64,000 nucleotides of DNA from a virus (Duplodnaviria > Caudoviricetes), in IMG/VR virus record IMGVR_UViG_3300042446_001529, positions 34,645-98,644 of that record. One strand, written 5' to 3'. The notes under the pieces were generated by a model. It had not been told where the DNA came from. It made no database searches and worked only from the letters and a program-made list of their open reading frames with translations. Positions 25,276 through 52,223 of this stretch are shown here, piece by piece. Position numbers and translations under genes: made by a program. The stretch's first letter is position 1. The number at the start of each line of letters is the position of its first letter.

Positions 25276-25283
25276 AGTGAAAA

Positions 25284-25291: not shown

Positions 25292-25299
25292 CAGGGGGA

Positions 25300-25698: not shown

Positions 25699-25699
25699 G

Positions 25700-25984: not shown

Positions 25985-26019
25985 ATACGTGTTCCTAATT
26001 AACCACGTATATATTTATA
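25983..26019 (-). promoter_or_regulatory. Late promoter TATAAATA (26012-26019) overlapping a 9-bp hairpin that covers the start region
   Basis: ATATACGTG (25983-25991) / CACGTATAT (26004-26012) inverted repeat. Confidence 0.6.
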
Positions 26020-26024
26020 TCTTT

Positions 26025-27719: not shown

Positions 27720-28159
27720 AGATTATCTTTCTTCACTGTTTTAATATCAATTACGCCTGTGTTTACAGGACCGCCGAAATCGCCATCGACTACTACATTG
27801 GCACACAGTTCACGGAACCAACGATCTATAATTTCTTCGTCTTTGTCTCCGTCCTCACCATATCCCTCTTGCTTTAATTTTAACACAAAAAGGTCGTTCC
27901 AGTCAAGCTCAAAAAAGCCATTACGAACATTATCTTTGTTGACATGTGTTTCGATTACGCCTACCCACGGTTCTTTTTTACGTGTTGCACGTTCTTTTGG
28001 AGATAATTTGGCCTGTGCCTCTGCTTCTGTAGCACGTTCGGCAGCTTCAGTGGCTGCTTTGGCTGTTTCAGAGGCTTGTGCTGCAATGCCTATTGATCGT
28101 TCTGCTTCTGCTCTGATCTTGTCAATACCAAATAATTTTTCAATCCATTTATTCATCAT
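27716..28159 (-). CDS. Hypothetical protein
   Basis: ORF coupled between queE and rnh. Confidence 0.65.
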   Translation of the reverse strand: MMNKWIEKLFGIDKIRAEAERSIGIAAQASETAKAATEAAERATEAEAQAKLSPKERATRKKEPWVGVIETHVNKDNVRNGFFELDWNDLFVLKLKQEGYGEDGDKDEEIIDRWFRELCANVVVDGDFGGPVNTGVIDIKTVKKDNL

Positions 28160-29010: not shown

Positions 29011-29015
29011 AGTTT

Positions 29016-29044
29016 ATTATACACTCTTTTTCTGTAATTGCCAA
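29016..29044 (-). promoter_or_regulatory. Sigma70-type promoter TTGGCA-17-TATAAT, 5 nt before queE ATG
   Basis: -35 at 29039-29044, -10 at 29016-29021, TG extension. Confidence 0.6.
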
Positions 29045-29181
29045 GAGCCATTGCCCTGATCTATCCATTCTAATGTGTCGCCTTCGCCCCAACCTTGCAG
29101 ATCCAACACTTCCTGTGGTATTGGCATAATGAGATCACCGGTATCAGGATCTTCTTCTAATACAACTGTCCAATTTTTCAA
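29017..29181 (-). CDS. Small AbrB/MazE-like protein (54 aa; not in ORF track)
   Basis: TTG start with CAGGAG SD; MKNWTVVLEEDPDTGDLIMPIPQEVLDLQGWGEGDTLEW. Confidence 0.65.
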   Translation of the reverse strand: MKNWTVVLEEDPDTGDLIMPIPQEVLDLQGWGEGDTLEWIDQGNGSWQLQKKSV

Positions 29182-29194
29182 TGTTAACTCCTGA

Positions 29195-29392
29195 TCAAAT
29201 AGTATTGTCGTTCTTATTTTTCCAATCCAAATATCTACGTTTACGACATTCTTCTTTAACGTCAGTTGGAATATCTGGATGCCATTCTGCCATGCCGCAG
29301 TCGTAGACTCGATATTCTGGCATTTCTACTTGAGAAAGAAAGAGAATCCAAAGGACGCAGGCAACAACAAACCCAATGAAATATTTCTTCAT
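29195..29392 (-). CDS. Small membrane-anchored protein
   Basis: N-terminal hydrophobic helix. Confidence 0.6.
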   Translation of the reverse strand: MKKYFIGFVVACVLWILFLSQVEMPEYRVYDCGMAEWHPDIPTDVKEECRKRRYLDWKNKNDNTI

Positions 29393-29595
29393 ACTCTATC
29401 GCTTAACAATATTTTACACAGCATTGCATCGTGTTCGTTATAAAATTTAAATGTCATTTGATCTGTTTCTGGATGGCTGGTATATCGATCGCCTGGAAGG
29501 CCAAAGTGTTCCAACACCATGACACAGGTTTCATTCCACCAAAATCCAGTTTGTTCTTTTTTCCAAGGAACTAAAATTGTTTTTAGATCAGACAC
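29389..29595 (-). CDS. Hypothetical protein
   Basis: ORF with ATGA coupling. Confidence 0.6.
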   Translation of the reverse strand: MSDLKTILVPWKKEQTGFWWNETCVMVLEHFGLPGDRYTSHPETDQMTFKFYNEHDAMLCKILLSDRV

Positions 29596-29605
29596 AATAT
29601 TTCAC

Positions 29606-29983
29606 TCATTTTTTATAATTACCTTTTTCTGGAATGACATGTCTGACACCGCCTGTAGGGTCTTCCATGTCGCCTTTACGTCGGGGAATCAAATGAACAT
29701 GTGGATACGGCACAGTTTGTCCAGCAGCTTCGCCCCAATTAAGGCCAATATTGAATCCATCCCACTCACCTGCTTTGACTTTTTCCTGCCCTACTCTTAG
29801 AGCATCAGCGAAACAATCTTCAATCACTCCCACAGCTGAATATTTAGGCACAAACAACAAGTGACCTTCTGTTACAGGATACTTGTCTTTAAAAACAACC
29901 ACATGAAAGTCATCTTGTAAAACATCGTTCCATGGTGCCTGCCCTGCATCACGTGCATCGTCTAACGAATAATGTAAGTTCAT
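29606..29983 (-). CDS. HIT family nucleotide hydrolase
   Basis: DKYPVTEGHLLFVP; AAGQTV.YPHVHLIPR. Confidence 0.9.
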   Translation of the reverse strand: MNLHYSLDDARDAGQAPWNDVLQDDFHVVVFKDKYPVTEGHLLFVPKYSAVGVIEDCFADALRVGQEKVKAGEWDGFNIGLNWGEAAGQTVPYPHVHLIPRRKGDMEDPTGGVRHVIPEKGNYKK

Positions 29984-30207
29984 CGTTTATACTCCTGTTT
30001 TTCTCTAGGAAGATCATCTTCGCGTACAACAAACTCACGGCCGCCTAGACTGCCTGCAAATGCTTTAGTACGTTCCATGTAAGCTAATCGTAGTTTAAGA
30101 GTTTGAAATGCAACATCTAAAAATACTTTAGGCTTGTAACCTAGAACATGCATGTCAAAATCTTTACCTGCGTCGGTGCAATGAACTTTAATTTTAGAAT
30201 CAATCAT
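29980..30207 (-). CDS. Hypothetical protein
   Basis: ORF with ATGA overlaps on both sides. Confidence 0.6.
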   Translation of the reverse strand: MIDSKIKVHCTDAGKDFDMHVLGYKPKVFLDVAFQTLKLRLAYMERTKAFAGSLGGREFVVREDDLPREKQEYKR

Positions 30208-30743
30208 TTGGTCCACCAATCTTCCCAAGGAAAATCAATCCATACATTGTTTTCTGCCTTGTTGACTTCCATGCCAACGAAATCCATCTTAACATTGCAT
30301 TTGCTGGCGAGATTATCTACTAACACAGCGAATTTAACATTGTTATTCCACACTTCTTCCCAGGCCGGATCATCTGGGAAGCAACCACTTGGCCAATCTT
30401 TCATAATCCAGTTAAGTGTAGTACCTTGATCGTTGATATCATCTACAATTAAAATGTTTTTAAAAGCGGTATCTTTATCAGCTGCACGATCCTTAGACAA
30501 CGGACCTAGCGCATCTTCAGCCATCCATAAATTGCTCTCCGGACCAATCTCGCTATCTCGTAGACTTACATTGAGAGTATGTAACGGAATATTAAAATAT
30601 TGACTGATCATAACAGCAGGAATCAATCCCCCTCGAGTAATACCTACGATATAATCGGGCCTCCATGTTCCTGTAGCAAGTTCTCTACAAATCTTGCCGA
30701 CTAGTCCTGTTACTTCATGCTGGTTGATTTTGAGTTTGTTCAT
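30204..30743 (-). CDS. Type I phosphoribosyltransferase (xanthine/guanine PRT-like)
   Basis: VGITRGGLIPA, ILIVDDINDQGTT, WIDFPWE. Confidence 0.85.
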   Translation of the reverse strand: MNKLKINQHEVTGLVGKICRELATGTWRPDYIVGITRGGLIPAVMISQYFNIPLHTLNVSLRDSEIGPESNLWMAEDALGPLSKDRAADKDTAFKNILIVDDINDQGTTLNWIMKDWPSGCFPDDPAWEEVWNNNVKFAVLVDNLASKCNVKMDFVGMEVNKAENNVWIDFPWEDWWTK

Positions 30744-31182
30744 TTCTATCCTTGAGATATTGTTCGTGTTGTATCCATTTGTTGTTGACTAAAAATCCCC
30801 ATTCACGCTTATGTGGACCTGGCATAAACAATGTCCAGGCAGTTACACCAGGTTTAAGTTCGATGCGATGATAGCTATTAGAACTACAGGTGCGAAAGTG
30901 ACCAGGTCCCCGCCAATGCTTGGTCTCTCCAATCATTTGGCCATTTTCGAAATCAGGAGTATATTCATAGTATCCACCTTTTAGTATTAGTGTAGCATAG
31001 GGCCACGGATGATCATGAACATCGTCAGGATCACCTTTGAGGAATTTATGTAAAAATACATTAAATGGAAAACGATTTCTTTCTTTCAAGAATAGATAAT
31101 ACCGTTCGAGATACGGTTCGTTATTAACACGATCATAAATGATACGCTTACGGCCCAGTCGTTCAAGCAGTTTCAAAAACAT
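30715..31182 (-). CDS. Cupin-fold protein
   Basis: LHKF..D..VHDHPW..GGYYE..HRIEL metal-binding pattern. Confidence 0.65.
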   Translation of the reverse strand: MFLKLLERLGRKRIIYDRVNNEPYLERYYLFLKERNRFPFNVFLHKFLKGDPDDVHDHPWPYATLILKGGYYEYTPDFENGQMIGETKHWRGPGHFRTCSSNSYHRIELKPGVTAWTLFMPGPHKREWGFLVNNKWIQHEQYLKDRNEQTQNQPA

Positions 31183-38764: not shown

Positions 38765-41434
38765 TCACTCAAAATCGAATAGTTTTGCGAATGTATTGTC
38801 CGACCTTGTTGAACTGATGTCCCATTCCAAAACACCAATAAGGTTTCCTAACTTCTCATCTATCACAGTGGTTTCCATCTCTGCATCATTGAAAGGCAGA
38901 TCCTTGAACCACTGCGGCAATCTCAGTTCATCCACAGGATAGGCCACGGAAGTATGCCCCATAGGATTGTCTTTGATCTTACATACAATTACTTTCATGC
39001 CATCTACTATCTGCATGGAGTATTTGTCATCCATCATACGCCTGAGAGTGTTCCAATTCAACGAAGCTCTAACATGCCCGGGCATATTGGTCTTGCCTGC
39101 TTTCTTTTCTTTGGCAGCGTATTCTGTGATATTGTTAGCTCGTTTAGGCGAGCCCTTTTCCCAACCCGGTCGAGTTTTAAATTCTGTGCGGAAATCAGTG
39201 ATATATTGCAGTATCTCTTCTTTGGTCACACCGGTTAGAGTTTTAGTCAGCACCTCACTCAAGAAGTCTTGTATAACAACCGGGGTATCTGAACGCTTGA
39301 GGTCAAGGCCCATGGCTTTGATCTTGCCTGGTTTGCCTTCTGTGTCTGCTCGTTTGCCTTCTTTGTCGTAGTAGAGCACTGCATATCGCTTCTTGGTAAT
39401 GAACAGTCCTTTGCTTGCAACAATCTCGCGACCTGCTTTGATGACCTCGGCTCTGGTTCGAGGAACATGAAATGCGTCCTGCATGAATTTGACAAATGTG
39501 CCATTGACTGTATCTCCTATAGTATCATAAAGTTCGACCACTGATTCTCTGTTCCAGGGAATCAGACCTTTCTCAATGTCTTTTTTCAGGGTAGCATACG
39601 CTGAAAAATAACAAGAGTCTGTGTCACCGTAGATTACTGCTCGACCAATATGGTCATACTCTCCAGTGATAATTTCGTTTACTTTTGATGCCATGTGTTT
39701 GGCAATTTGCCGGCCGGTCAGTGTAGTTGACTGTCCGATTCGGTTATCAAAGAATCTACAGCCTGGATTTAAAATCGCACCATAGAGACTGTTCAACAGA
39801 ATCTTCTTGACCAACTGTCGTTTGTCCCAGTATTCTTCTTCAATCTTGTTGCCAGCTTGGATACATTCTTTGAGCTTGGCCTGCATTTCTTTACGTTCTT
39901 TATACCAACGAGCCAGCAGTCCTGATATCACTCCTTCAGTTTCATATGTGAATATAGTGCCGTTAGCTGAGATCATCCAGGGTTGGTTGCTGTCAAATAT
40001 AAGATCATAGGCCTGAGCCGCACTTAGCGTATCCGAACCACCACCTTCCCAATCAACAGTGACTTCACGACCTACTTCTCTGTTCATCACGGCAGAATAT
40101 TCAAGACTACCAAATATACCTTCCCATGCTGATGCAAATGACTTGCCCTTGGACATTTCTGCTGCAATAAAATCCTTGGTTCCATCCTGTCTCAACTGAC
40201 CCACGATGGTTTCAGGACCCATATTCAAAGCCCGAATAGCACTAGGATAGAGACTGTTAATGTCAAGAGAGCCAATCCACTCATGTATACCTTTCTTAGG
40301 ATATGCAACGTAAGCCCCAGCAGCCTGCGTGTCTCCGTGCTCTTCCATCTTTTTGCGATTAGGAACTATCATACCTCTGCGGTGAGCTTCGTTGATGATA
40401 GCTTGTTCAGTCACAGCCACCGCACCCATAGTAGTTGCTAACAGCACTGTGTTTTCGTGTGCAATAGTATTAGCTAAGTCGATGAATTTCAGTTTCTTAT
40501 CTAGATCATCTAGCAGTTTACAATCGTTGATGTTGTATTCGACGAATGTTTTAAAGTCATTGTTGTATAGTTGATCAAGTGTACCTTCATACTGAGTCTT
40601 TCTCTGACCTAGTTCATATTCGGCAATGGCATCTAATCGATAGGTGTGACGTTCTTCATAGGTATACTTGCGATAAAGTTCAAGACTGTCTATATGCACA
40701 CGACCAATGAAGTCATATGTAGTGGCAGTTTTACCGAACTTTTCATATTCGCGTTTCTTAGGCAAACAGTTCCATAGACAAAATCGTTTGGTATCCTCTT
40801 TGCTGAGAACCTTGGTGACACGATTAACTGTGTATGGAATATCGAACCCTTCTGAATTCCACCCACTTAGAACATCTGCATCTTGTATAAGATCCAAGAA
40901 TGTGTTTAACATGTCTGCTTCGTTGTCAAACAGCATGGTGTTGGGGAATTCTTCAACCTGCTTGGTAGCTTCAGCCATGCTGAGTGTTTTAGGAGGTATG
41001 GCTAGGCATACCATGGTCTCCATCCATTGTAGATACACAGCGATAGCAGTGATGGGCATGAATGCATCATCTGGTGAAGCATAGCCCCGTTCAGGATCAA
41101 AGTCTACCTCAATGTCGAAAAATGCTACATTTAGTTTAGGAGCATCTTGATTGAGATAATGATCTTCTAGACATCTATAGATAGGATTGATGTCTGACTC
41201 GTGGAGTTTCTTGTTTGAATGTATGGCAAGTTCTTTGCGATGTTCTTTGACATTCTTTGAACTTACACGGCTAAGAGGTTCACCCTTGATGGATTGGAAC
41301 TTGCCTTTGGGGTCGTTGTAATAGAATATATGTTTGGCAGCATAGTCTTTGAAATGTCTCTGCCCTTTGTCGTCACGCTCAACGACACGTATCATGTCAT
41401 CGTCGCGATCGTAGTATGCGTCCACGAAACTCAT
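38765..41434 (-). CDS. Family B DNA polymerase (T4 gp43-like)
   Basis: FFDIEV exonuclease, GWNS.GFD, DINSLYPS, KILLNSLYG, YGDTDS, KKRYA. Confidence 0.97.
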   Translation of the reverse strand: MSFVDAYYDRDDDMIRVVERDDKGQRHFKDYAAKHIFYYNDPKGKFQSIKGEPLSRVSSKNVKEHRKELAIHSNKKLHESDINPIYRCLEDHYLNQDAPKLNVAFFDIEVDFDPERGYASPDDAFMPITAIAVYLQWMETMVCLAIPPKTLSMAEATKQVEEFPNTMLFDNEADMLNTFLDLIQDADVLSGWNSEGFDIPYTVNRVTKVLSKEDTKRFCLWNCLPKKREYEKFGKTATTYDFIGRVHIDSLELYRKYTYEERHTYRLDAIAEYELGQRKTQYEGTLDQLYNNDFKTFVEYNINDCKLLDDLDKKLKFIDLANTIAHENTVLLATTMGAVAVTEQAIINEAHRRGMIVPNRKKMEEHGDTQAAGAYVAYPKKGIHEWIGSLDINSLYPSAIRALNMGPETIVGQLRQDGTKDFIAAEMSKGKSFASAWEGIFGSLEYSAVMNREVGREVTVDWEGGGSDTLSAAQAYDLIFDSNQPWMISANGTIFTYETEGVISGLLARWYKERKEMQAKLKECIQAGNKIEEEYWDKRQLVKKILLNSLYGAILNPGCRFFDNRIGQSTTLTGRQIAKHMASKVNEIITGEYDHIGRAVIYGDTDSCYFSAYATLKKDIEKGLIPWNRESVVELYDTIGDTVNGTFVKFMQDAFHVPRTRAEVIKAGREIVASKGLFITKKRYAVLYYDKEGKRADTEGKPGKIKAMGLDLKRSDTPVVIQDFLSEVLTKTLTGVTKEEILQYITDFRTEFKTRPGWEKGSPKRANNITEYAAKEKKAGKTNMPGHVRASLNWNTLRRMMDDKYSMQIVDGMKVIVCKIKDNPMGHTSVAYPVDELRLPQWFKDLPFNDAEMETTVIDEKLGNLIGVLEWDISSTRSDNTFAKLFDFE

Positions 41435-41507: not shown

Positions 41508-41798
41508 TTAATTAATTAGCATTCTTGCTAGGCCGAATGTGTCAATTGCGGTTAGCAAGATGTAGTTAGCCAACATGCCAAACGATTTCCGAGTATAAGC
41601 AGCCCAAGCATACATGGCACAGCCAGCGATCCAAATAGGATACAAAACAAGTAAAGGCGGATTGGGAACTGTAAGCGCCATAGTGATTGAGCAGCCGATA
41701 CTAACAGCCCAAGCAAGCAGCTCAATAACGAAACGGAAGCGATTGCTTTGCCAGTCATCTCTGATCCAATCAAAAGTTGGTTTTAATAATTCATTCAT
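41508..41798 (-). CDS. Membrane protein
   Basis: Three hydrophobic segments. Confidence 0.7.
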   Translation of the reverse strand: MNELLKPTFDWIRDDWQSNRFRFVIELLAWAVSIGCSITMALTVPNPPLLVLYPIWIAGCAMYAWAAYTRKSFGMLANYILLTAIDTFGLARMLIN

Positions 41799-42055
41799 TC
41801 AGGAAGTTTTTTAGTAACACCGAGAATCATTTCAATCTCGCTCCACTCTGCTTCATGGTCTTTCCAATTGTCTTTGTGTGCGATGCGTATGGCTTTGTTG
41901 ATCCAACTGGGTTTGATTTGTAATTCTTCTGCGACAGCTTTAACAGTTTCTTTAAGACCTTCGTTGAGATCTTCTACTTCACGAAGCACATTAGATCCTT
42001 CGTTGATTAATCTTTCGAGTTTGGCTTTTTCTTCCGGTCCATACATTTTTGACAT
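41795..42055 (-). CDS. dsDNA-binding protein (T4 DsbA-like)
   Basis: Small helical protein, E.LKE.VKAVAEEL.IKP..INKAIR.AHK. Confidence 0.55.
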   Translation of the reverse strand: MSKMYGPEEKAKLERLINEGSNVLREVEDLNEGLKETVKAVAEELQIKPSWINKAIRIAHKDNWKDHEAEWSEIEMILGVTKKLPE

Positions 42056-42142: not shown

Positions 42143-43522
42143 TTAACTAGAACCGTCTCGGTCCATTCCAATTTGAGACAAGAACATAATACCTAGTACT
42201 CCTGGAATAATTAACCAAGCCGGGCCACCGAATATTCCTGCGATTGTTGCGGCTGCGCCTCCTAGTATTCCTGTTAAACTTGAAAGTTTTTCACCTAGTG
42301 TAGCACTCGGTGCCCAAGCATCAATGCCACCTAATGTTCCTCGGCCACTCTTTGGATCTTTTTTCTTTTGACCGAAGAAGTCACCTACTGGACCTTCTTC
42401 GATAGATTCTGCAGCAGTTTCAGGTTTAGCACCCAGTGCTTTGGCCACTGCTTTGATATTTGCTAATGTGAAATCACTTTTATCTGCACGGTCTTTACCT
42501 AACACTTGTTTAGCAACATCTGCCATTTTATCTTTTTCTTGATCTGAAAGCTTTGGTGCCAGTTTAGACATTAGCAGGCTTTTGACTTTGTCCATCGTGC
42601 CTTCATCTAAACGTGAGCGATTTTCAACTATTTTTTTTCTCGACTCGCTCAATACATCATACATTTCAAATACGCCACCGTTGCGTTCATAGACCAGTCC
42701 TGCGTATAGATCAGCTTTCATGCCTTCGCCTAGTTTGCTCTGAGCCACACGTTCGGCCCAGGTAAACAATGCTTTGTCTACAGGATCGATCTGTTGTTGG
42801 CCACCACTTTCTTGAACTAGTTGGACCATCTGTTTGAAAGATAATTTTGTTTCTACACTTTCTTTAACAGTTTTCTTCTTGCCTTTTGGCATCATTGCGC
42901 TTTCAGTTTTAGATGCAATGGCTTTTTGTAGTCCTGGGGGAAGTTTTTTCTGCTTGTCTGAAAGGCCTTTTTTATCTGCGGGCTTGTCGTTACCTTTTTC
43001 ACCAGCAGCTTTTTTCATTGGCTCTTTCTTGTCGCCGTCTTTGTCAATGTCTAGGAAGTCTGGCTTGGCACCTTCTGCCATCTTTTCTTTCTTGGCCATT
43101 TTCTTTTTCTTGTCAGCAGCTTCTTCTTTCTTGGCTTCGACCATCTTCATGAACTTGCTTTTAAATTCTGGTTCTACACTTTCTTTCTTGGCTTTCTTCT
43201 TTGGCTTGTCATCTTCGTCATCGGCTTCTTTTTCTTCACTACCGCCATAGGCCTTGCTGCTCTTGTGAACAATGCCTGTTTTTGTTTTTTCAACAGTGCC
43301 AGTAGCGATGTTTTTCTTATCGCCTACTTTCATGTCGCTCTCTTCTTTGACATCTTCTTCAGCTTTCTTTTTAGCTTCAGCAACGTAAGTAGTGCGGCCG
43401 CTTAGAACACGCAGTTGTGCGTCTTCGTTTAGTTGCACAGATTTTGGCAGCTCTGGTGCTTTTGGAGTATCGATCTTACCGTCGATACTTTCTATTTTGC
43501 TGATTAACGATTTGAAGTCCAT
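42143..43522 (-). CDS. K/E-rich putative prohead-core/internal polyprotein with C-terminal TM segments
   Basis: Many (L/V/I/M)-x-E|(G/S/A/D) sites, DIDKDGD motif, hydrophobic tail; GATAAATA at 43549-43556. Confidence 0.6.
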   Translation of the reverse strand: MDFKSLISKIESIDGKIDTPKAPELPKSVQLNEDAQLRVLSGRTTYVAEAKKKAEEDVKEESDMKVGDKKNIATGTVEKTKTGIVHKSSKAYGGSEEKEADDEDDKPKKKAKKESVEPEFKSKFMKMVEAKKEEAADKKKKMAKKEKMAEGAKPDFLDIDKDGDKKEPMKKAAGEKGNDKPADKKGLSDKQKKLPPGLQKAIASKTESAMMPKGKKKTVKESVETKLSFKQMVQLVQESGGQQQIDPVDKALFTWAERVAQSKLGEGMKADLYAGLVYERNGGVFEMYDVLSESRKKIVENRSRLDEGTMDKVKSLLMSKLAPKLSDQEKDKMADVAKQVLGKDRADKSDFTLANIKAVAKALGAKPETAAESIEEGPVGDFFGQKKKDPKSGRGTLGGIDAWAPSATLGEKLSSLTGILGGAAATIAGIFGGPAWLIIPGVLGIMFLSQIGMDRDGSS

Positions 43523-43551
43523 GTTCACATTCCTAAAAGTGTATTATATAT

Positions 43552-43737
43552 TTATCTTTTTACTAAAGACCCACCAGTTAACAGATTAGTTCCTTTGAGA
43601 TCTAATGCGTTTTTTGCGGTTCCGTCTTTGTTTTTTGCCGTTTTTCCGGGTTTATTTTTGTATACAGCACCTATAGCTACGTTACCAGCACTGGTAGCGC
43701 CTGCTGTTGCTGATTCTACAATTTCACGTATTTTCAT
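43552..43737 (-). CDS. Small basic protein, MKIREIVE N-terminus
   Basis: Capsid-targeting-like leader; AATAAATA 5 nt upstream. Confidence 0.6.
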   Translation of the reverse strand: MKIREIVESATAGATSAGNVAIGAVYKNKPGKTAKNKDGTAKNALDLKGTNLLTGGSLVKR

Positions 43738-43741
43738 ACTA

Positions 43742-44062
43742 TTATTTATTCTTCTTGGCACGGCCTGCTTTCATGTTAGCTAACCAGTGCGCTAGTTGTC
43801 CTTTGCGCCCGCCTTGTTTTGCAGTTTTACGCAATGAACTTACACTAGCTTTGGTATTGATACCGTGACGTTTACTATCGCCTTTGTCTTGTGGATTCTT
43901 TCCATCAGCAAAGTTTTCACCCACGCCACCACCGTCTCCAGCACCACCGTCGCCACTGTAGCCAGCATAGTATCCGTAACCACCGTAAGGACCCGGGCCG
44001 TAAGCAGCCCAACGCGGTCTACGTTTCTTTTTTCTTTCAACTATAAATTCACTTGCTCTCAT
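43742..44062 (-). CDS. Small basic/Gly-rich protein, [10 protein letters not shown]-terminus
   Basis: Capsid-targeting-like leader; internal VGE|N site. Confidence 0.65.
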   Translation of the reverse strand: MRASEFIVERKKKRRPRWAAYGPGPYGGYGYYAGYSGDGGAGDGGGVGENFADGKNPQDKGDSKRHGINTKASVSSLRKTAKQGGRKGQLAHWLANMKAGRAKKNK

Positions 44063-44136
44063 ACTGGGCTATAAGGATTCTTTGGAGTGTCGTATCCGTC
44101 ATCTTCTGGATACACTGGATAATTGTTTGGGTTCAT
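44059..44136 (-). CDS. 25-aa Pro/Tyr/Asp peptide (not in ORF track)
   Basis: [25 protein letters not shown]; ATGA overlaps at both ends. Confidence 0.55.
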
Positions 44137-44459
44137 ACTGAAAAACTTGATCCACACCCGCAGGTAGATTGTGCATTGGGATTACTAATAACAAACTGAC
44201 TGCCCATGGCTTCTTCTTTGTAATCAATAACAGCACCTTGTAGATATTGCATACTCATTGCATCAACAAACACGTTGTATTGTTCGTTGATAGGAAATTC
44301 AAAGTCGTCTTCGTTCTTTGTTTCGTCAAAGGTAAAGCCATAACTGAAGCCACTGCAACCGCCACCTTGCACAAAGGTGCGCAATGCCAGCTTGGGATTA
44401 TTTTCTTCTAGCAGCAAATCCATAATCTTTGATTTCGCTGATTGTGTTATTTCAACCAT
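44133..44459 (-). CDS. A-type Fe-S carrier protein (IscA/ErpA/HesB family)
   Basis: [35 protein letters not shown]. Confidence 0.95.
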
Positions 44460-44667
44460 TTTGTTTTCCAATAGGCTTTTCGCCTGTTAAGTAAGGCAAA
44501 CTAAACCATAGCTTGAACCATTCTTCGGTGCCTGGTCTAATATCATGTTTTTTCATAAGTTCACCTTTTTCATTGCCAGTTATACTTATGTTGCTGCCAG
44601 CATATGGTTGATATCCTTGATATTCTGTGATACCAGCTAGTTTTTTCAGTTCATCTAGTTCTGACAT
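44452..44667 (-). CDS. Small protein, [10 protein letters not shown] leader
   Basis: Start [15 protein letters not shown] with AGGAG SD. Confidence 0.65.
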
Positions 44668-45019
44668 TTTTAGCTGCTCCTTTGCGATTGGCATTGGGGT
44701 CTTCACGACGTTTGCGAGCAGCAGCAGTGGCACGACCTTTCTTGCCTAGTGCGTGTGCTTTGGACTGAGGTAGACACTTGGGCTTGCCTTCTTTCTCACT
44801 ATCTCTAGCACAGTCGCCACGTATCTTGCCATCTGGACCAAAGCGGACCCATTTGTCTTTGAACCACTTACGCAGATTTTCATCTACGGGTTCTATGTCT
44901 TCTGATTTTTTACGACCTTGGCAGTAAGCTTGTTGACTAAACCCTTTGGGGTTAGAACAGTTTATGGACTTTTTATATTTTTTAGTCCACTTCTCAGTGA
45001 CAAACTCATATGCTCTCAC
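44651..45019 (-). CDS. Basic two-module protein, MRAYEFVTE N-terminus
   Basis: Capsid-targeting-like leader; Cys-pair modules split at VDE|N. Confidence 0.65.
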   Translation of the reverse strand: MRAYEFVTEKWTKKYKKSINCSNPKGFSQQAYCQGRKKSEDIEPVDENLRKWFKDKWVRFGPDGKIRGDCARDSEKEGKPKCLPQSKAHALGKKGRATAAARKRREDPNANRKGAAKNVRTR

Positions 45020-45396
45020 TTCTTCTTGCCCTTGCCATAATTAGCAGCACCTGCTTTGCGACACTGTACCAATCGTCCTGACGCATAGGCACTGGGCCAA
45101 ACCTTGGACGAAGCTTTGATCTTGTGATAGCAGGCATCTTTCTTGCCTTCTTCAAGTTGGTCTTCTGAGACCATGTCTCCGTGACATATAGGGCATACAC
45201 CTGCTTCTATGTAGTCTTGAAGACTTTTACCTTCCGCTACATCTTGCTCCATAGGAATCAAATCTTTCTTATGTTTAGTGTCGCCCTGTTTCTCTGCCCG
45301 CTTTTTATCTTTGTGAGCGCCAGCACCTGCGCTTTTAGAATTTTTAGCAACAAAGTTTCTAGGCCGGCTAGCTGGTATAATGTCTTTGGCTCTCAT
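45016..45396 (-). CDS. Basic three-module protein
   Basis: Modules separated by VAE|G and LEE|G; CPICHG; CYHK..WPSAYASG.LVQCRK. Confidence 0.65.
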   Translation of the reverse strand: MRAKDIIPASRPRNFVAKNSKSAGAGAHKDKKRAEKQGDTKHKKDLIPMEQDVAEGKSLQDYIEAGVCPICHGDMVSEDQLEEGKKDACYHKIKASSKVWPSAYASGRLVQCRKAGAANYGKGKKK

Positions 45397-46535
45397 ACTG
45401 TAATACCTCTTGATCTGATGCCACCTTTACGTTTTACTTTACCTAATTCTTCGAGAGCGTGACGTATTTGTTCCATGTTCATTTTCAATTCTTCAAACTG
45501 ACGTGCCATCAGTTGCCACTCACCTGGACTAGCATTTTCTGCGCGAGCAGCAAGATCCTTTAACTGGCCAGCAGCACGTAGCATACGATATTTTAATTTA
45601 GCAGGATTTGCTTTGTCGTGACTGTGAATCATTGGATCCATTGGATCTGCTGGGTCCATTTCAATAGGAGATTCTTTAACTTCTTCTTTCTTTTTAGGAT
45701 ATCCGTGTTTGATATCTAATGTATAGCCCTGCAGTCCTTGTTTATCTAAAACTCCGCTGATAAATTTTTCTGCTTCTCTAGCATTATCGAATCTATCACC
45801 TAAATTATATTTTCGAACCTCGCCGTCAATCATTACATAAGCAATGGTAATTGGCTTTGTTGGTTCTTCTGCTTGGGCAGGACTTAAAAGATTCGCAGCA
45901 GCCAGTGCCGCTGCCGCTGCTTGACTTTTCCAACCTTCCTCTATACCTTCGTTGATGCCCATGCCTTTACGCACCGCAGCAAACAAAGGCTTGGCAAGTT
46001 CGCCTGCTCCTGTGGCTTCTTGGAACCCTTCGAAGTCGTTGTTGGCAGCAGCTGCTCTTGCACCGCTGGCACTGACTCCTGCCACTCCTTCAGCGCCGTC
46101 TTCACGGTCTCCGCTGCTGGCAAAATCGATGACATCAAATTTATAAAATCCGTGCGCTTTGCCTTCAACACCGTTGTATTGTGTGAGAAGATTTTTCATA
46201 TCTTCTAGGCGATCCGATCCTGCTACGAATGTTACCGCGGAGTAGCCCTGATCGTGTAGATAGCTAGCCACTTTACCAATGGTGTTTAGTGCTGCATTCT
46301 CTACTACATTGCTGGCATACTGGGGAAACATTTCCTTGATAAACTTTATCTTAGTGCTGTAGTCTAGTGGATTTTTCTTTTTATCTTGACTTTGACTGAC
46401 AAAAACTTTCATTTCTCCGCCCTGGCTTTTCATGGTATCTAATACCTGTTTGTGACCAATGGTAGGCGGATTCATTCTGCCAAAGCAGAATGTAACATGT
46501 TTGGTTTCAGCTTCAAACAGTTGTCGTAACAGCAT
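45393..46535 (-). CDS. HIGH-class nucleotidyltransferase (cytidylyltransferase-like) fused to extra modules
   Basis: FGRMNPPTIGH, KKNPL, VAGSDR, SAS..R; leader MLLRQLFE; INE|GIEE|G and VKE|S junctions. Confidence 0.75.
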   Translation of the reverse strand: MLLRQLFEAETKHVTFCFGRMNPPTIGHKQVLDTMKSQGGEMKVFVSQSQDKKKNPLDYSTKIKFIKEMFPQYASNVVENAALNTIGKVASYLHDQGYSAVTFVAGSDRLEDMKNLLTQYNGVEGKAHGFYKFDVIDFASSGDREDGAEGVAGVSASGARAAAANNDFEGFQEATGAGELAKPLFAAVRKGMGINEGIEEGWKSQAAAAALAAANLLSPAQAEEPTKPITIAYVMIDGEVRKYNLGDRFDNAREAEKFISGVLDKQGLQGYTLDIKHGYPKKKEEVKESPIEMDPADPMDPMIHSHDKANPAKLKYRMLRAAGQLKDLAARAENASPGEWQLMARQFEELKMNMEQIRHALEELGKVKRKGGIRSRGITV

Positions 46536-46870
46536 TAGTCGTAGTCGCCTTTTTCTATGTATTTTTCTTGTTCGCCGGCAATACGTTTAGCCAAATCTAT
46601 AATTTTATCTTTAGGGAATTTCTTATCTGTATCATCGATATCGTATTTGTCACAATAATGACCCATGCACTTTTCTAATGGTCGGATGTAGACTTTGAAC
46701 ACATTGGGATTGCCTCTGTGCTCACGATGACGTTTCACCGCAGGGAAAAAATACTGGTCCAGCATTTTTGAATCGTTGTCGATGAAAAATTTTAAATCAT
46801 CCAACCAATCGATTTCTTGTTGTTCGTCTTTGGGTGCGCCAATGGCACTGAACATTTCTTTTAATAACAT
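46535..46870 (-). CDS. Hypothetical protein, MLLKEMF N-terminus
   Basis: TAATG-coupled ORF. Confidence 0.65.
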   Translation of the reverse strand: MLLKEMFSAIGAPKDEQQEIDWLDDLKFFIDNDSKMLDQYFFPAVKRHREHRGNPNVFKVYIRPLEKCMGHYCDKYDIDDTDKKFPKDKIIDLAKRIAGEQEKYIEKGDYD

Positions 46871-47967
46871 TACCAGCTCCGGCAAGACCAGTATCTAGCT
46901 TTATGACGAGGTCCTGGATTAGCACAATTATGACGAGCACGGAATGATTTTCTACGTGCAGGATTGGATTTTTTGATACGCATTTTCTTGTCACCGAAGT
47001 TTACTTTGACAATGTTACCATTAGGCTTGCGAACATATACTTTGGATTTCTTGACATCGCCTGCCATCTTTTTACCCAAGGGCACTTCACGTCCTTGGTA
47101 TTTGGCTTCATCGACATCACCTTCCGCCACACCTTCTTCGTAGTTCTGGGCTTTCATGTAATCGCGAGCTGTATCAATGTAGTCCACAGCTTTAGTGATC
47201 TTGCTTTGCACCCATTCTGGAAGATTGTCGTCTGCTCGTAGGATACTGTATAGTTCTTCAGCAGCATCGTCTATGGTGCGCAAATCATCTTTGGCCATGT
47301 CGCCTTCGCGATCATATTCACCGTAATTTACGGGGTCTTTTGGATTCTCAGGACCGTGATCTTCTTTCTTAACTTTACCCTTATGTGCTTTACTCAACCT
47401 ATCCTTAAGAGCACCTAATTCTTCTTGACTGGCACCGTCACGGCCTGCGGCCGCCGCGGCTTTCATATATTCTTCACCGTGTTTCTTAACTCCAGTAAAA
47501 TATTGAAGACCGCTTTCACCTATTTTCTTACAGTCATTGGCACCAACTCTGCGATAGCCTTTCCAACAGGCACGGCCGCCTGTGCCTTTATCTTTGTCTT
47601 CTACAAGTTCACCTTCAAAGAATTGTAAGCCTTCATTAGTCAGCATCTCTAGTGCGGTGTCATCTAATTCGATTACAATGCCATCTTCTAGAATATCTAC
47701 AATAGTAGTGGCAATCTCATGATCTTCTGAAAAGCTGATACCAAACTCGTCACCTACTTCAAATGATTCTGCAAATCCTTTAGATTTGGCCTCTTTTTCG
47801 AGATCTGTTTTTCTTTGTGTAATTGCACTGCTGATTTCTGGATCGGTGCTAGCCACAGGATCTTTTTCAAGATCTGCCAGGGCTTTGCGTTTGGCCTGAA
47901 GATCTTCAGGATTTTTTAATGCTGTTTCGCTTACTATAGCGTCTAATTTAGATAACAGGTCTCTCAT
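46870..47967 (-). CDS. Modular putative head-internal polyprotein
   Basis: IVSE|T, FAE|S, LVE|D, IGE|S, VAE|G, VDE|A junctions; CWKGY and RKSFRARHNC..YWSC modules; GATAAATA at 47992-47999. Confidence 0.65.
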   Translation of the reverse strand: MRDLLSKLDAIVSETALKNPEDLQAKRKALADLEKDPVASTDPEISSAITQRKTDLEKEAKSKGFAESFEVGDEFGISFSEDHEIATTIVDILEDGIVIELDDTALEMLTNEGLQFFEGELVEDKDKGTGGRACWKGYRRVGANDCKKIGESGLQYFTGVKKHGEEYMKAAAAAGRDGASQEELGALKDRLSKAHKGKVKKEDHGPENPKDPVNYGEYDREGDMAKDDLRTIDDAAEELYSILRADDNLPEWVQSKITKAVDYIDTARDYMKAQNYEEGVAEGDVDEAKYQGREVPLGKKMAGDVKKSKVYVRKPNGNIVKVNFGDKKMRIKKSNPARRKSFRARHNCANPGPRHKARYWSCRSW

Positions 47968-48011
47968 AGTATTCCTCTCGAGGTCATACTATATTTATCG
48001 TCTCAAACAGT

Positions 48012-48380: not shown

Positions 48381-49064
48381 CTATTTATCGCATACTATAA
48401 AGTTATATACTCTGCCCACAACGTCAGCACCACGCAGTTTCATCATTAGCAGTGTGGATTCATCTTCAACTAATACATATCTACGGTCCCAATTCCAATC
48501 TGTGGTCAAGAACCAACGTTCGATCGCAGGAGTGCAGGTTATTCTAGGGGCTTGTGATTTCAGCCAGGCTAGATATTTCTGTTTGCCTTCACGATCTTTG
48601 GCCATTTTATGCGGCATGAGATACACGCGATAGCGATATCTGTCCTTGGGCAGTTTACTCACTGTGATACAGTTCTGTGAATTATTCAACACATCGAGAT
48701 TGTTGATGTTGGGTTCAAATCTATGCACCAAGTAATCTTGGCTAGCTAGGCTGAGTTTTTCGTAGAACTCGGCATCGTTGGTATAAACATCTAGTCTATT
48801 CCTTTCAACTCTTGTTGCGTATGCATCTTCGTCGTAGGAATTCAAAAAGTCACAGATGCTGCTTAATATTTCTTTATTAGCCGTGGCCCTACGCCAATTA
48901 TCATAATGATAACCGCTGTCACTGTTGGAATTTTCTAACCAGTCCTTGATATTTGAAATAGGTTGTGTGCGAAATATCACACAACCGTCTATTTGCAGGC
49001 TGATTTTGTATAACCATTTGTTATAAAACTTACGACTGGTCGATTTGGTTTTCAGTTGTAGCAT
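48381..49064 (-). CDS. Hypothetical protein
   Basis: Long ORF overlapping clpA end. Confidence 0.65.
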   Translation of the reverse strand: MLQLKTKSTSRKFYNKWLYKISLQIDGCVIFRTQPISNIKDWLENSNSDSGYHYDNWRRATANKEILSSICDFLNSYDEDAYATRVERNRLDVYTNDAEFYEKLSLASQDYLVHRFEPNINNLDVLNNSQNCITVSKLPKDRYRYRVYLMPHKMAKDREGKQKYLAWLKSQAPRITCTPAIERWFLTTDWNWDRRYVLVEDESTLLMMKLRGADVVGRVYNFIVCDK

Positions 49065-51387
49065 CTTGTTCTTGTGTATTTGCTGCTTCAGCAATTCGTT
49101 GCGCCCTAAGAGCTTTTCTTTCTTCCTTGGTCAACGGTTTTGGTATCTCAACCACTGTGAAATCTAATTTGTCATCGATGATATCCACGGTAACTCTTCC
49201 GCCATTTACTAGATCACCGAATAACACTCTGCGACTTAGTGGGCTCTTGATCTCGTTGTCTATGATCCGTGCCAATGGTCTTGCCCCCATCTTTTTGTCG
49301 TAGCCTCGATCTGCTAGCCAACGTGTGGCCTTGGCGTTAACCACGATCTCAATGCCTTTGTCTTTGAGTTGACTGTTGAGATCAGCCACAAACTTCTTGA
49401 CGATCTGGATCACAGTGTCGCCACTGAGCTTAGAGAACTTGATCACAGCATCTAGTCTATTGCGGAATTCTGGGCTGAAATGTTTCTTAATAGCTTTGTC
49501 ATCTTCGCCATCGCGTTCTAGTTCGCCAAACCCGATGGTGTTGAGTTCATTGTCTGCTGCGCCGAGATTTGATGTCATGATCAATATTGTGTTACGACCA
49601 TCAGCTACTTTGCCATTGGATCCTGTGATAAAACCGTTGTCCATGAATGCCAACAGAATGTTCATGACATCTGGATGAGCTTTTTCAACTTCGTCTAACA
49701 GTAAGATGGCATTAGGTGTTTCTTGTAGTTTAGTGATCAACATACCAGCATTATCTTCGTAACCAACATAACCCGGAGGAGCACCGATCAATCTTGCCAC
49801 TGAATGCTTTTCCTGATACTCGCCCATGTCAAATCGTATCAACTGCATGCCCATTTTATCTGATAATTGTTTAGCAGTTTCGGTTTTGCCGCAGCCTGTG
49901 GGTCCTAAGAATAGGAATGACCCAATAGGCTTGTTAGGTGCCTTCATGCCAGCCTGACTCACAAAGATTTTATCTAACAATGTATCTACAGCATTATCTT
50001 GTCCGTAGACCACACCCTTCATCTGAGTGTCTAACTCTGAAAGATTTTTGCTTTCTTTTTGCGCCACGGTTTCTAATGGCATGTTAATCATCTTACTGAG
50101 TTCGTAGGTGACCTGTTCGATGTCTACAATCTGTGTAACACCTTCCATGCCCTCATCATCTTTGAGCTTATATCTAGCACAGGCACAGTCAATAATATCA
50201 ATAGCCTTGTCAGGCAGTTTTTTATCACTCATATATTTGACACTGAGCTTAACTGCTTGTTCGATGGCTGCATCGGATATTTTTACATTGTGATGTTGCT
50301 CGTAGTATTTCTTTAGACCTTTAAGGATCTTCACAGCCATTTCTGGTGTAGGCTCTTCAACGGTCACACGTTGGAATCGACGCATCAGCGCACGATCGCC
50401 TTCGAAGTGCTTGCGATATTCTTCCCATGTGGTAGATGCTATCAGCTTGAGAACACCTTTGGTAAGTATGGGTTTCAACATATTGGCCATGTCGTTTGAA
50501 CTGCCATTTGCAGCACCCGCACCGTTCATCATGTGTGCTTCGTCGATGAACAAGATGATCTTGCCTTTTTTCTCTAGTGCAGCCAACACCGCTTTAACTC
50601 GTTCTTCGAAATCACCACGATACTTTGATCCTGCTAGGAGAGCACTGATGTCCAAAGTATAGACTTGATGGTCCTTGATAAATTTAGGAACCTTGCCTTC
50701 GTGAATCTTACGAGCAATGCCCTCAGCAATAGCAGTTTTACCCACTCCGGGATCACCTACCATTAACACGTTGGCCTTGTTTCGACGTGCCAATACCAAT
50801 TGTATTTTTTCTATTTCGTCATCACGGCCTATTACAGGATCAAGTTTTCGCTGTTTGGCCTTGAGACTGAGATTGGTACAAAACTGATTCAATATTCGAT
50901 CTATTTGATTTGAGTTCACTATTCTTGTTTCAACTTCGGCGTCTTCGGTAACCTGCACATTTTCTTGGAAATACTTTACAAACTTTTCTTTAGTCACCCC
51001 GGCCTTGGTAAGAAAGTAGTAACCGAAACTGTTTTTCTCTGACAGCACACTGATAATGATATCTGATATCTCCATGCGCTGTCTACCGCTAAACAACACC
51101 TGTGTAAAGCAACGATTCAACACACGTTCTACGCTGTTGGTCTTTTTAGGTTTTGCGTTGGCATTAGTAGTTTTAATATCATTGAGATTGTTTTTTAAGT
51201 AGTGTTCTATATTTGTTTTAACAAATTTAGCATCAGCACCAAAACTTTCTAATAGTTTATAAGAATCCTCATCATCCATGATGCCATAGATAATATGTTC
51301 AATGGTTATGTACTCGTGACTCAAAGTCTTGGCCATCTCTATAGATTTTTCAAAAATTTCTTGTAGGCTCTTACTGGGTTCAATCAT
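49030..51387 (-). CDS. clpA: ATP-dependent Clp protease ATPase subunit
   Basis: Clp N-domain, GDPGVGKT, FIDEAH, GPTGCGKT, RLIGAPPGYVGY, IGF loop; no ClpB M-domain. Confidence 0.92.
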   Translation of the reverse strand: MIEPSKSLQEIFEKSIEMAKTLSHEYITIEHIIYGIMDDEDSYKLLESFGADAKFVKTNIEHYLKNNLNDIKTTNANAKPKKTNSVERVLNRCFTQVLFSGRQRMEISDIIISVLSEKNSFGYYFLTKAGVTKEKFVKYFQENVQVTEDAEVETRIVNSNQIDRILNQFCTNLSLKAKQRKLDPVIGRDDEIEKIQLVLARRNKANVLMVGDPGVGKTAIAEGIARKIHEGKVPKFIKDHQVYTLDISALLAGSKYRGDFEERVKAVLAALEKKGKIILFIDEAHMMNGAGAANGSSNDMANMLKPILTKGVLKLIASTTWEEYRKHFEGDRALMRRFQRVTVEEPTPEMAVKILKGLKKYYEQHHNVKISDAAIEQAVKLSVKYMSDKKLPDKAIDIIDCACARYKLKDDEGMEGVTQIVDIEQVTYELSKMINMPLETVAQKESKNLSELDTQMKGVVYGQDNAVDTLLDKIFVSQAGMKAPNKPIGSFLFLGPTGCGKTETAKQLSDKMGMQLIRFDMGEYQEKHSVARLIGAPPGYVGYEDNAGMLITKLQETPNAILLLDEVEKAHPDVMNILLAFMDNGFITGSNGKVADGRNTILIMTSNLGAADNELNTIGFGELERDGEDDKAIKKHFSPEFRNRLDAVIKFSKLSGDTVIQIVKKFVADLNSQLKDKGIEIVVNAKATRWLADRGYDKKMGARPLARIIDNEIKSPLSRRVLFGDLVNGGRVTVDIIDDKLDFTVVEIPKPLTKEERKALRAQRIAEAANTQEQDATTENQIDQS

Positions 51388-52223
51388 TACATATTTCCTT
51401 GTTTGATCTGTTTTATTAGGTCGATTTGCTCGGGTTGTAGAATTTTTGGGATTGATACTTTAATTTTTATCAATAAGTTACCTCGCTGCCTTGTGCGCAT
51501 ATTGGGCAAACCTTCACCTCTGCAACTCATTACTGTATCCGGTTGTGTACCGGGTGGCAAGTTCATTGATAATGTTTTACGATCTAGTGTTTGTATTTCT
51601 ATACTGGCTCCCAGCAATGCATCCCATACACTTACTTCTCGTTCTACAATCAACGATGTGCCTTCTCGTCGGTATATGGAGTGTTCACGCACTATGACAT
51701 TAACCAATAAATCTCCTGGTTTGAGACTGGGTATTGAATCATCGCCCATGCCTTCGTATCTAATTTGTTGTCCATGCTCTATGCCCGGAGGAATCTGAAT
51801 GTTGATCATCTTATTCTTACCAGGGATTGAAACTTCAGCGGTAAAGTCTTTGCCGTTAAGCACATCTTCTAAGGTAATTTCTACATTGATGTTCAAGGAT
51901 CTATTTCTGCGTTGAGGCTGGCGACCAAATCCGCCAAAGCCAAAGTTACCGAAAATGTCATGCATATTACCAGTGTCGAAATGAAACTCAAACGGATTTT
52001 GACCTCTACCCATGCCCGGCTGTGCATTAGGATCACCGCCAAGGTCTATGATTTGTTTTTTCTGGGGGTCGCTAAGAAATTCGTAAGCCTGTGATATTTC
52101 TTTGAACTTCTTTTCATCACCGCCTCGATCTGGGTGATATTTCATGGCCATGCTTCGGTATGCCTTTTTTATTTCGGCATCACTGGCGTTTCGTTTTAGT
52201 CCTAGGGTAGCGTAGTAATCCAT
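51387..52223 (-). CDS. DnaJ-class (type II, CbpA-like) co-chaperone
   Basis: DYY..LG, HPDRGG J-domain, G/F linker, C-terminal domain; no zinc finger. Confidence 0.9.
   Translation of the reverse strand: MDYYATLGLKRNASDAEIKKAYRSMAMKYHPDRGGDEKKFKEISQAYEFLSDPQKKQIIDLGGDPNAQPGMGRGQNPFEFHFDTGNMHDIFGNFGFGGFGRQPQRRNRSLNINVEITLEDVLNGKDFTAEVSIPGKNKMINIQIPPGIEHGQQIRYEGMGDDSIPSLKPGDLLVNVIVREHSIYRREGTSLIVEREVSVWDALLGASIEIQTLDRKTLSMNLPPGTQPDTVMSCRGEGLPNMRTRQRGNLLIKIKVSIPKILQPEQIDLIKQIKQGNM

Follow-up and report, generated by a model that had tools for sequence, protein, structure and literature searches.

What kind of gene system would give a row of small, unrelated proteins the same short beginnings and the same internal joints? 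The question is raised by ten minus-strand genes at positions 42143–47967 of a 64,000-nucleotide stretch of viral DNA (the window), which comprises bases 34645–98644 of a 98,644-bp IMG/VR virus record. This record is a fragment with a CheckV completeness of 28%, so the full genome should be roughly 350 kb, and its source is a marine jumbo T4-related myophage. According to the original prediction, the row is a cluster of capsid-targeted polyproteins that are cut by a protease into mini-proteins within the head. Nine of the ten genes are assigned to this system, and the tenth, an IscA-type gene, lies outside it. The analysis described here makes it fairly probable that the row encodes head cargo, when packaging and processing are taken together; packaging by itself appears likelier than the combination, and effector roles of the modules seem less likely.

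Leaders, junctions and modules of the row

Many of the genes overlap or abut (TAATG, ATGA and GTGA), so the row resembles one operon. In the order of transcription, the products are 365, 111 (open reading frame, ORF, of 116), 380, 126, 122 and 71 (ORF of 93) aa long, followed by the IscA-type protein and by products of 106, 61 (ORF of 69) and 461 aa. The analysis was based on the 109 ORFs called on the whole 98.6-kb record and on a comparison set of 1,850 distinct proteins from 80 IMG/VR loci, the window's record and a 260-kb contig (G001). The loci were found with the 126-aa protein of the row (586 of 600 stretches were confirmed and 80 were kept), and were thus chosen by protein similarity, not by DNA.

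Six or seven of the nine genes appear to start with a leader that resembles the T4 capsid-targeting sequence (CTS). The T4 sequence is MKTYQEFIAE (PMC8442874), in which residues 4 and 7 are used for targeting and residues 8 and 10 for processing (PMC9026906). The leader pattern in the row consists of Met, Lys or Arg, an acidic residue, two hydrophobic residues, any residue and Glu at position 8–10, and the leaders are 8–14 aa long. All seven leaders named in the original prediction were found on the minus strand at the genes concerned, although three of them (MKIREIVE at 43737, MLLKEMF at 46870 and MSELDELKK at 44667) need an internal start, which is backed by homologues. The tag is clear in the 122-, 106- and 61-aa proteins, with MKIREIVE among the leaders that fit the T4 pattern, and in two leader-class genes outside the window (record positions 1229–1654 and 1651–2550); the 380- and 365-aa proteins have a looser version, and the 126- and 111-aa proteins an incomplete one that ends without Glu. 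Across the record, [VILMF]-x-E ends at residue 8 or 9 in 8 of the 109 ORFs, six of which belong to the leader class (four in the cluster and the two outside the window), the other two being unrelated proteins. The leader pattern is carried by 30 of 112 module proteins, compared with 40 of 1,491 other proteins of the same contigs, and most of these 40 are small hypothetical proteins with the same tag. The conserved tag is thus found on dozens of unrelated small proteins, and the cargo behind it is hypervariable. Among the relatives of the 126-aa protein, the same leader type was present on nearly all sequences examined. A tandem array of tagged genes was also seen in locus L049 (11204–13155), where four consecutive genes have the near-identical leader MIKL-x-D/Q-L-I/L-x-E and differing bodies.

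The predicted joining of modules at hydrophobic-x-Glu sites was borne out by motif counts. The nine cluster proteins contain 31 copies of [VILMF]-x-E-[GSADN], compared with 11.0 expected, and none of 500 composition-preserving shuffles reached 31. In 109 module proteins the motif was counted 372 times, compared with 161.6 in shuffles (2.3-fold, z-score 17.7), and in 566 other proteins of the same contigs 1,232 times, compared with 1,122 (1.10-fold). The P3 residue of the junctions is mostly Val, Ile or Leu. Module contexts were then anchored on conserved module starts within the 1,850-protein set. The NFADGK module is preceded by Glu in all 13 distinct contexts, in two of which a leader is fused straight onto the module. 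Glu also precedes the AKYQGR module in five of six contexts, and Glu plus one residue precedes the W-x-KYK module in nine of ten; in both cases the one exception is the start of a gene. Similar boundary behaviour is shown by the LR-x-WF, CW-x-GY, KKDACY and AAWTKK modules. Behind Glu, one and the same module occurs downstream of many unrelated partners. The check proposed with the original prediction, whether module boundaries coincide with x-x-E sites across phages, therefore came out in its favour, as starts fall directly after Glu in 13/13 and 5/5 internal contexts. Because Glu stands before module starts, including those to which a leader is fused, the leaders end in the motif that separates the modules.

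In a large collection of proteins, the 126-aa protein has at least 1,200 relatives (1,200 of the 1,212 candidates passed E ≤ 0.001, and 120 were listed). The GVAEG joint recurs among them, whole modules are inserted between two joints (P0010 compared with P0002), and the partner modules include Pterin_4a, DUF6321 and DUF7230. The second motif reported for the row, L(K/R)xL(A/S)G, is likewise present, in the 93-aa ORF (71-aa protein) and in the 461-aa protein. Its looser form, [LIM][KRQ]-x-[LIM][AS]-G-[ILVQR], has 25 sites in the 1,850 related proteins (∼6 expected from a rough composition estimate), which are found at N-termini, at the very C-terminal end and between modules, as a rule preceded by acidic residues.

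The individual genes, all on the minus strand, illustrate this organization. The 365-aa modular protein (46870..47967) begins with a leader of 14 aa that ends in V-S-E. It has an acidic N-terminal part, followed by a CW-x-GY mini-module, a middle part and, directly after V-D-E, a C-terminal module that is basic and contains Cys; this last module forms a stand-alone 79-aa gene in pelagiphage Kolga. The 111-aa protein (46535..46870, with the ORF extending to 46885) starts with MLLKEMF, contains zero junction motifs and has no homologue beyond the four near-identical loci L004–L007, which are omitted from the listing. In the 380-aa protein (45393..46535), an 8-aa leader is followed by a cytidylyltransferase-like domain (Pfam CTP_transf_like at residues 17–114, E = 2.6e-8; PHROG cytidyltransferase, E = 3e-47), a swappable module in the middle and a conserved one at the C-terminus. 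The basic 126-aa protein (45016..45396; net charge +11, four Cys) comprises, from N- to C-terminus, the leader with a DUF7230-like basic module, a V-A-E|G junction, a mini-module with CxxC and, last, the conserved KKDACY...WPSAYASG module. The very basic 122-aa protein (44651..45019; +19, four Cys) starts with the leader MRAYEFVTE, behind which two modules are split at V-D-E|N. The 71-aa protein (44452..44667; ORF of 93 aa) starts with MSELDELKK and carries the second recurrent short motif, and the gene that follows (44133..44471) is of the IscA/HesB Fe-S assembly type (Pfam Fe-S_biosyn, E = 4e-18). The basic 106-aa protein (43742..44062; +15) consists of the leader MRASEFIVE, a Gly/Tyr-rich part, a V-G-E|N junction and the NFADGK module. 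The basic 61-aa protein (43552..43737), for which the 69-aa ORF nets +9, starts with MKIREIVE, and its homologues in loci L008 and L013 start at the same Met. The Lys/Glu-rich 461-aa protein (42143..43528) contains the second motif as LRVLSG along with numerous x-x-E sites, and its C-terminus has two hydrophobic segments.

The Pfam matches within the row are limited to Fe-S_biosyn (IscA) and CTP_transf_like (380-aa protein), and the remaining modules are DUFs (domains of unknown function) or unnamed. The PHROG families of the 122- and 126-aa proteins (phrog_727, phrog_3477, phrog_38880 and phrog_12753) are long and multi-module, with function unassigned. Many of the modules had been described as very basic with Cys pairs. 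At the level of whole proteins, strong basicity (net +9 to +19) was found in five of the nine; Cys is present in four, and three of these have four each. A sequence search of solved structures with the 365-, 126-, 122- and 461-aa proteins gave weak matches only (the best, at E = 0.004, was to a designed protein), and none was judged meaningful.

The modules are exchanged between closely related phages. Locus L005 represents what is essentially the window's own phage, and in L007 the identity is ∼81% across the 126-aa gene. Both loci retain the neighbouring genes for the polymerase and for the ClpA-like and DnaJ-like proteins, and the cluster interior differs, with whole modules inserted, deleted or swapped at x-x-E relative to the window in four of five aligned genes. 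In the 365-aa gene, L007 carries a 144-aa insertion exactly between E-E and GVAEG, and in the 106-aa gene a 106-aa insertion exactly between V-G-E and NFADG, the insert itself ending in N-V-E. In the L007 version of the 380-aa protein, E-E is followed by a different middle module. The last ∼170 residues of the 461-aa protein are absent in L005, L008, L010 and L013, and the L005 version ends a few residues past an L-S-E site. In the fifth aligned gene, encoding the 126-aa protein, L007 has an additional N-terminal module. The mix-and-match arrangement that had been predicted is therefore seen directly between near-identical phages. Since the joints are standardized, modules can be added, removed and swapped in frame, and the locus is hypervariable. 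A separate rearrangement concerns the IscA gene: at 10652–11071 of L007 the body of the upstream 71-aa gene is deleted and its first residues run into the IscA frame, and in G001 the IscA homologue has a different location, upstream of a 771-aa gene that carries no annotation.

Homologues in virions and the prohead protease

Packaging of the row proteins appears well supported, because virion-detected homologues in cyanophage S-SCSM1 share modules with four of the window's proteins. Mass spectrometry of S-SCSM1 virions purified in caesium chloride (CsCl) yielded 45 proteins (PMC9602691), and in the GenBank annotation gp029, gp280 and gp281 are marked as virion proteins from mass spectrometry. 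When the window's proteins were compared with S-SCSM1 by tblastn, four matches were obtained. The 380-aa protein matched gp281, an NMNAT (E = 2e-40), the 126-aa protein and the second module of the 122-aa protein both matched gp029 (E = 2e-14 and 7e-10, respectively), and the 461-aa protein matched gp280 (28 aa with 78.6% identity, E = 4e-7). NMNAT/cytidylyltransferase-like proteins were reported from three cyanophage virion proteomes (PMC9602691). Both gp281 and its S-RIM2 homologue carry a T4-like 10-residue tag ending in hydrophobic-x-Glu-Ala. In S-RIM2 and S-SCSM1 a multi-module protein is encoded between terS and terL, and the gene after it begins with a leader very near the T4 CTS. The KKDACY...WPSAYASG module was found in 363 records of an isolate collection, all of cyanophage type by organism name (Synechococcus 308, Cyanophage 36, Prochlorococcus 14 and Marine 5). 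For jumbo coliphages that are related through the polymerase, a prohead core scaffold and protease are listed among the virion proteins, and in the same source a characteristic bubblegram, read as radiation-sensitive proteins embedded in the DNA, is given only for phiKZ-like phages and coliphage 121Q (PMC7247149).

In small phages, the same modules occur as separate genes of 32–100 aa, which are leaderless and jointless and lie in the head-gene cluster. In Kolga, gp56 and gp57 adjoin a head morphogenesis gene. In genome G020 (48 kb, 88% complete) and similar fragments (L028, L029, L032 and L054), three or four module genes are located between the major head protein and virion/tail genes. Separate module genes are also present in L078 (G035), and L081 (G036) has a clear separate 97-aa gene of DUF6321 type, the gene calls at the match itself being ambiguous. 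The distribution of the T4 prohead protease family, Peptidase_S77, follows the same division. It is present in S-SCSM1, S-RIM2 and G001 (E = 8e-29 in G001), and no match was found in G020, G035, G036 or Kolga, a result that is weaker for the incomplete records than for the complete Kolga genome. Fused modules therefore go with the presence of a Glu-specific prohead protease, and separate ones with its absence. The gp21-family proteases of T4, phiKZ, 201phi2-1 and SPN3US all cleave C-terminal to Glu (PMC5694885). G001, which is 74% complete and contains one module gene, is a true relative of the window's phage, as 47 of the 109 record ORFs have syntenic matches in it, and its portal, core protein, protease, scaffold and capsid genes follow one another in T4-like order at ∼90.6–96.6 kb. 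A Pfam search for Gp23, the T4-type capsid protein, in 33 records behind related loci gave one match, a result of little weight because most of these records are 5–20% complete. In the podovirus-like loci L036 (9701–10751), L028, L029, L032 and L054, the mini-genes are DUF6321 or related, KKDACY and LRDWF, mostly together with a Lys/Gly-rich gene, and these highly basic mini-genes resemble a set of head-internal DNA-associated proteins.

The proposed course of events would be as follows. The row would be transcribed as one late operon, and the leader, acting like the T4 CTS, would bring every precursor into the prohead's scaffolding core. There, an S77 gp21-like protease would cut after Glu, removing the leader and splitting exposed hydrophobic-x-Glu joints. 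Small, mostly basic proteins, together with at least one enzyme (cytidylyltransferase/NMNAT-like), would remain in the head with the DNA, and the cargo would probably exit with the DNA at infection. Cleavage of the precursors at the junctions into mini-proteins is strongly inferred from the position of Glu at module starts and the known specificity of the protease family, and the late transcription, the targeting by the leader, the injection into the host and the functions of the modules are likewise predicted. The grammar of the sequences, their variability, the co-occurrence with the protease and the presence of homologues in virions are observations.

The GVAEG word, export-like segments and alternative explanations

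One joint is conserved beyond its amino acid sequence. In the window, GGTGTGGCGGAAGG followed by T (47119..47133, minus strand) encodes GVAEG in the 365-aa gene. The 14-nt word GGTGTGGCGGAAGG is present in 15 of 18 distinct GVAEG-type joints, and the exact 15-mer ending in C in 12 of them; elsewhere in the same genes, GTG accounts for 12% of Val codons and GCG for 6% of Ala codons. Within 1.5 Mb, the 14-mer was counted 20 times and was in frame every time; in one locus seven copies fall within 2 kb, and a single gene can hold up to seven (loci with the word include L037, L009, L015, L016, L007 and L106–L185). In IMG/VR, the 15-mer was found in at least 128 stretches, including contigs of 120–425 kb. 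Among the 80 loci fetched, ∼86 of 94 matches are read in the GVAEG frame within long ORFs, usually behind Gln, Glu or Lys, and ∼8 of the 94 resemble chance matches. Because matches of the order of 100 could arise by chance alone in a collection of such a size (a rough estimate), the argument for the word rests on frame and context, not on the count. The L007 insertion has the word on one flank and an 11-of-14 copy on the other. These observations suggest that the GVAEG joint has a role at the DNA or RNA level, e.g. as an in-frame recombination site, with recent copying as the alternative.

Segments resembling export signals were found directly behind some joints. In the 380-aa protein, a Sec-signal-like segment (Lys, an Ala/Leu-rich run and A-x-A; 45870..45935, minus strand, ∼residues 201–222) begins directly after an I-E-E junction. 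Twin-arginine (Tat)-like segments, consisting of RR-x-F-L and an Ala/Gly-rich stretch, follow a joint in three cases: in the swapped-in module of the L007 version of the 380-aa protein (gene 8439–9908), in L176 and in one further instance. Tat and Sec signals normally function only at a free N-terminus, so their position after joints argues for cleavage there. A general rule of signal-like hydrophobic segments after junctions was not upheld, as a scan gave few candidates among module-type proteins and only some modules have them. The segments raise the idea that some cargo may be re-exported to the periplasm. The word and the segments could be combined into a broader scheme, in which the 15-nt word GGTGTGGCGGAAGGC and its looser relatives would be recombination joints for in-frame module swaps, each also serving as a protease site, and new combinations would be packaged via the leader and cut, with Tat- or Sec-bearing parts re-exported to the periplasm of the new host. 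We regard this cassette-exchange scheme as speculative and rather unlikely in its entirety.

The row proteins could instead be intact multi-domain virion or late proteins, in which x-x-E and GVAEG form only acidic, flexible linkers and the tag, a short helix, has another role, such as folding, docking or translation start context. This would agree with the occurrence of leaderless multi-module proteins in cyanophages, with the low AlphaFold2 confidence around the linkers, as for any flexible linker, and with the virion detection of gp029, which in the accessible text of PMC9602691 comes without a statement on processing. However, the placement of Glu at exactly −1 of the module starts (13/13 and 5/5 internal contexts) is more precise than would be expected of a linker alone, the leaders end in the same motif and are fused directly to modules, and the Tat- and Sec-like signals come after junctions. 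Moreover, fused forms are found in S77-bearing genomes and separate genes in S77-less ones. We consider the intact-protein explanation unlikely. Still less probable, in our judgement, is that the leader and junction sequences are mainly DNA-level joints for in-frame cassette shuffling, with the peptide reading secondary and no proteolysis. Most junctions are not of the GVAEG type and have only the hydrophobic-x-Glu pattern in common, which argues for selection at the peptide level. The evidence on the other side is the single 14-nt word itself, which recurs in 15 of the 18 independent GVAEG-type junctions contrary to local codon usage, stays in frame in all 20 copies in 1.5 Mb and in ∼86 of the 94 IMG/VR matches, and flanks the L007 insertion opposite its 11-of-14 copy; a role as a DNA joint is, in any case, compatible with cutting by a protease, and both can hold. 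We would give similarly little credence to the proposal that the products are small, late, unpackaged cytoplasmic or exported effectors, cut by another Glu-specific protease or uncut, whose virion homologues represent carry-over. Carry-over is allowed for by the S-SCSM1 authors (PMC9602691), and the Tat/Sec-like segments would equally serve export from the infected cell. [quoted passage not shown]

Packaged and processed head cargo remains the preferred explanation for the row, and a number of observations besides the possible carry-over weigh against it. No head genes and no Peptidase_S77 match were found on the 98.6-kb record (28% complete), and because of this the prohead protease is inferred from relatives. 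The terminal Glu is missing in the leaders MRAKDII and MLLKEMF, and in one relative it is replaced by Asp, which in T4 blocks processing (PMC9026906). Some junctions, e.g. I-P-M-E, have Pro instead of a hydrophobic residue at P3. S-SCSM1 gp029 and its S-RIM2 homologue are multi-module proteins that start without a leader, so a leader is not required for every packaged module protein; a clean T4-like leader was present in one (gp281) of 47 translated virion-flagged S-SCSM1 proteins, and the small leader-bearing gp030 has no virion flag. The separate-gene forms show that the modules are able to work in the absence of a polyprotein stage, and the conservation of GVAEG at the DNA level indicates some constraint in addition to, or in place of, recognition by the protease. 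An AlphaFold2 model of the 126-aa protein from a 32-row alignment had a predicted local distance difference test (pLDDT) score of 55.8, too poor for assigning a fold or function.

The late promoters cited in the original prediction also count among these points. TAAATA or ATAAATA does occur at 43549, 43743 and 47992 on the minus strand. The motif is not enriched, with 10 minus-strand and 3 plus-strand copies of ATAAATA in the 64 kb where ∼11 per strand are expected (our composition estimate), and the full T4 late box TATAAATA occurs 4 times, compared with 5.4 expected, and zero times in the row region. The claim is thus statistically unsupported and weak, and late promoters were dropped as supporting evidence; the late-promoter-like heptamer ATAAATA at 47992..47998 (minus strand), 25–32 nt upstream of the first gene of the row, was retained as a candidate only. 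As for the wider interpretation, its mix-and-match part is supported directly and its capsid-targeting part indirectly, by the likeness of the leaders, the protease of a relative and the virion homologues.

Genomic setting and known systems

The row is adjoined by a minus-strand gene for an 889-aa family-B DNA polymerase (38765–41434), which is 50% identical to that of Sinorhizobium phage Phosso, 47% to Agrobacterium phage Atu_ph07, 44% to Vibrio phage 2.275.O and 43% to the 121Q/Asteriusvirus group; its nearest relatives are thus jumbo T4-related myophages. A DsbA-like late-transcription factor (Pfam Phage_DsbA; 41795–42055) also adjoins the row. Directly upstream of the row, genes for a 785-aa ClpA/ClpB-like ATPase and a 278-aa DnaJ-like protein (49030–52223, minus strand) are conserved and syntenic in L005, L007 and G001. 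Baseplate and fibre genes are present on the 98.6-kb record, and within their region, outside the window, a 4,605-aa protein is encoded on the plus strand (record G000, 16930–30747), with a G001 counterpart of 5,439 aa. A plus-strand gene block at 7007–23826 of the window includes several products whose Cys-rich N-termini resemble, to our eye, those of radical-SAM enzymes.

If the head-cargo explanation is correct, T4-related marine phages, including abundant cyanomyoviruses and uncultured jumbo phages, would load a fast-changing repertoire of mini-proteins and enzymes by a rule of tag, module and Glu joint. This would explain the recurrent cytidylyltransferase/NMNAT-like enzymes in cyanophage virion proteomes, the role of some widespread families (DUF6321, DUF7230, phrog_727 and phrog_3477) and the variability of the regions that hold these modules, and head cargo and mature protein ends could be predicted from genomes alone by a sequence rule. 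With the leaders and joints as building parts, foreign proteins could also be loaded into the heads of marine phages. New testable leads come from the conservation of one joint at the DNA level and from the export signals that follow joints; were the cassette-exchange scheme true, periplasmic re-export of injected cargo would be a delivery route not described for phage cargo. Literature searches, which did not cover subscription journals, gave no account of tag-plus-Glu-joint mini-module polyproteins, of the DNA word or of export signals behind joints, and those on DUF6321, DUF7230, phrog_727 and GVAEG gave nothing relevant. The cyanophage multi-module homologues sit between terS and terL in the g16–g17 hyperplastic region, which Millard et al. 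2009 reportedly described in T4-like cyanophages in terms of gene-content plasticity, and not of tags, junctions or processing.

Several known systems share individual features with the row. Polyvalent proteins (Iyer et al. 2017, PMC5512222) likewise combine unrelated domains in one chain and are predicted to be packaged and injected, and some of them to be cut. They differ in that they carry mostly enzymatic conflict domains and are linked to MuF, portal or their own zincin-like peptidase, and the accessible part of the source describes neither a T4-type tag nor Glu junctions (PMC5512222). None of their hallmark domains was found by Pfam among the proteins of the region. The inner-body and ejection proteins of phiKZ, 201phi2-1 and SPN3US, which are processed by gp175/gp245, resemble what is proposed for the row: a gp21-related protease cleaves many head-internal proteins behind Glu at a short motif, and each precursor has several sites (PMC5694885, PMC9026906). 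As far as these sources extend, the phiKZ group has an A/S/G-x-E motif, propeptides of ∼100 residues or more and large fragments, and not shuffled mini-modules. The polymerase and the synteny place the window's phage with Atu_ph07/121Q-like T4 relatives, and not with the phiKZ type.

The nearest known system appears to be that of the T4 internal proteins, the CTS and gp21, with which the row agrees on every feature that could be tested. T4 internal proteins are single proteins that are cut once (PMC8442874), whereas many of the predicted cargo proteins of the window consist of two to more than five mini-modules per chain with repeated junctions. The leaders of the window are also one residue shorter than the T4 tag and more varied, one of its junction types is fixed at the DNA level and some of its modules carry export-like signals, all of this being known here from sequence alone. 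In common with T4 IPI, IPII and IPIII, the row has an N-terminal tag of ∼10 residues ending in hydrophobic-x-Glu and basic cargo, in a T4-related background with an S77 protease in relatives. Like the T4 internal-protein locus (PMC3012670), it is hypervariable, and only the tag is conserved.

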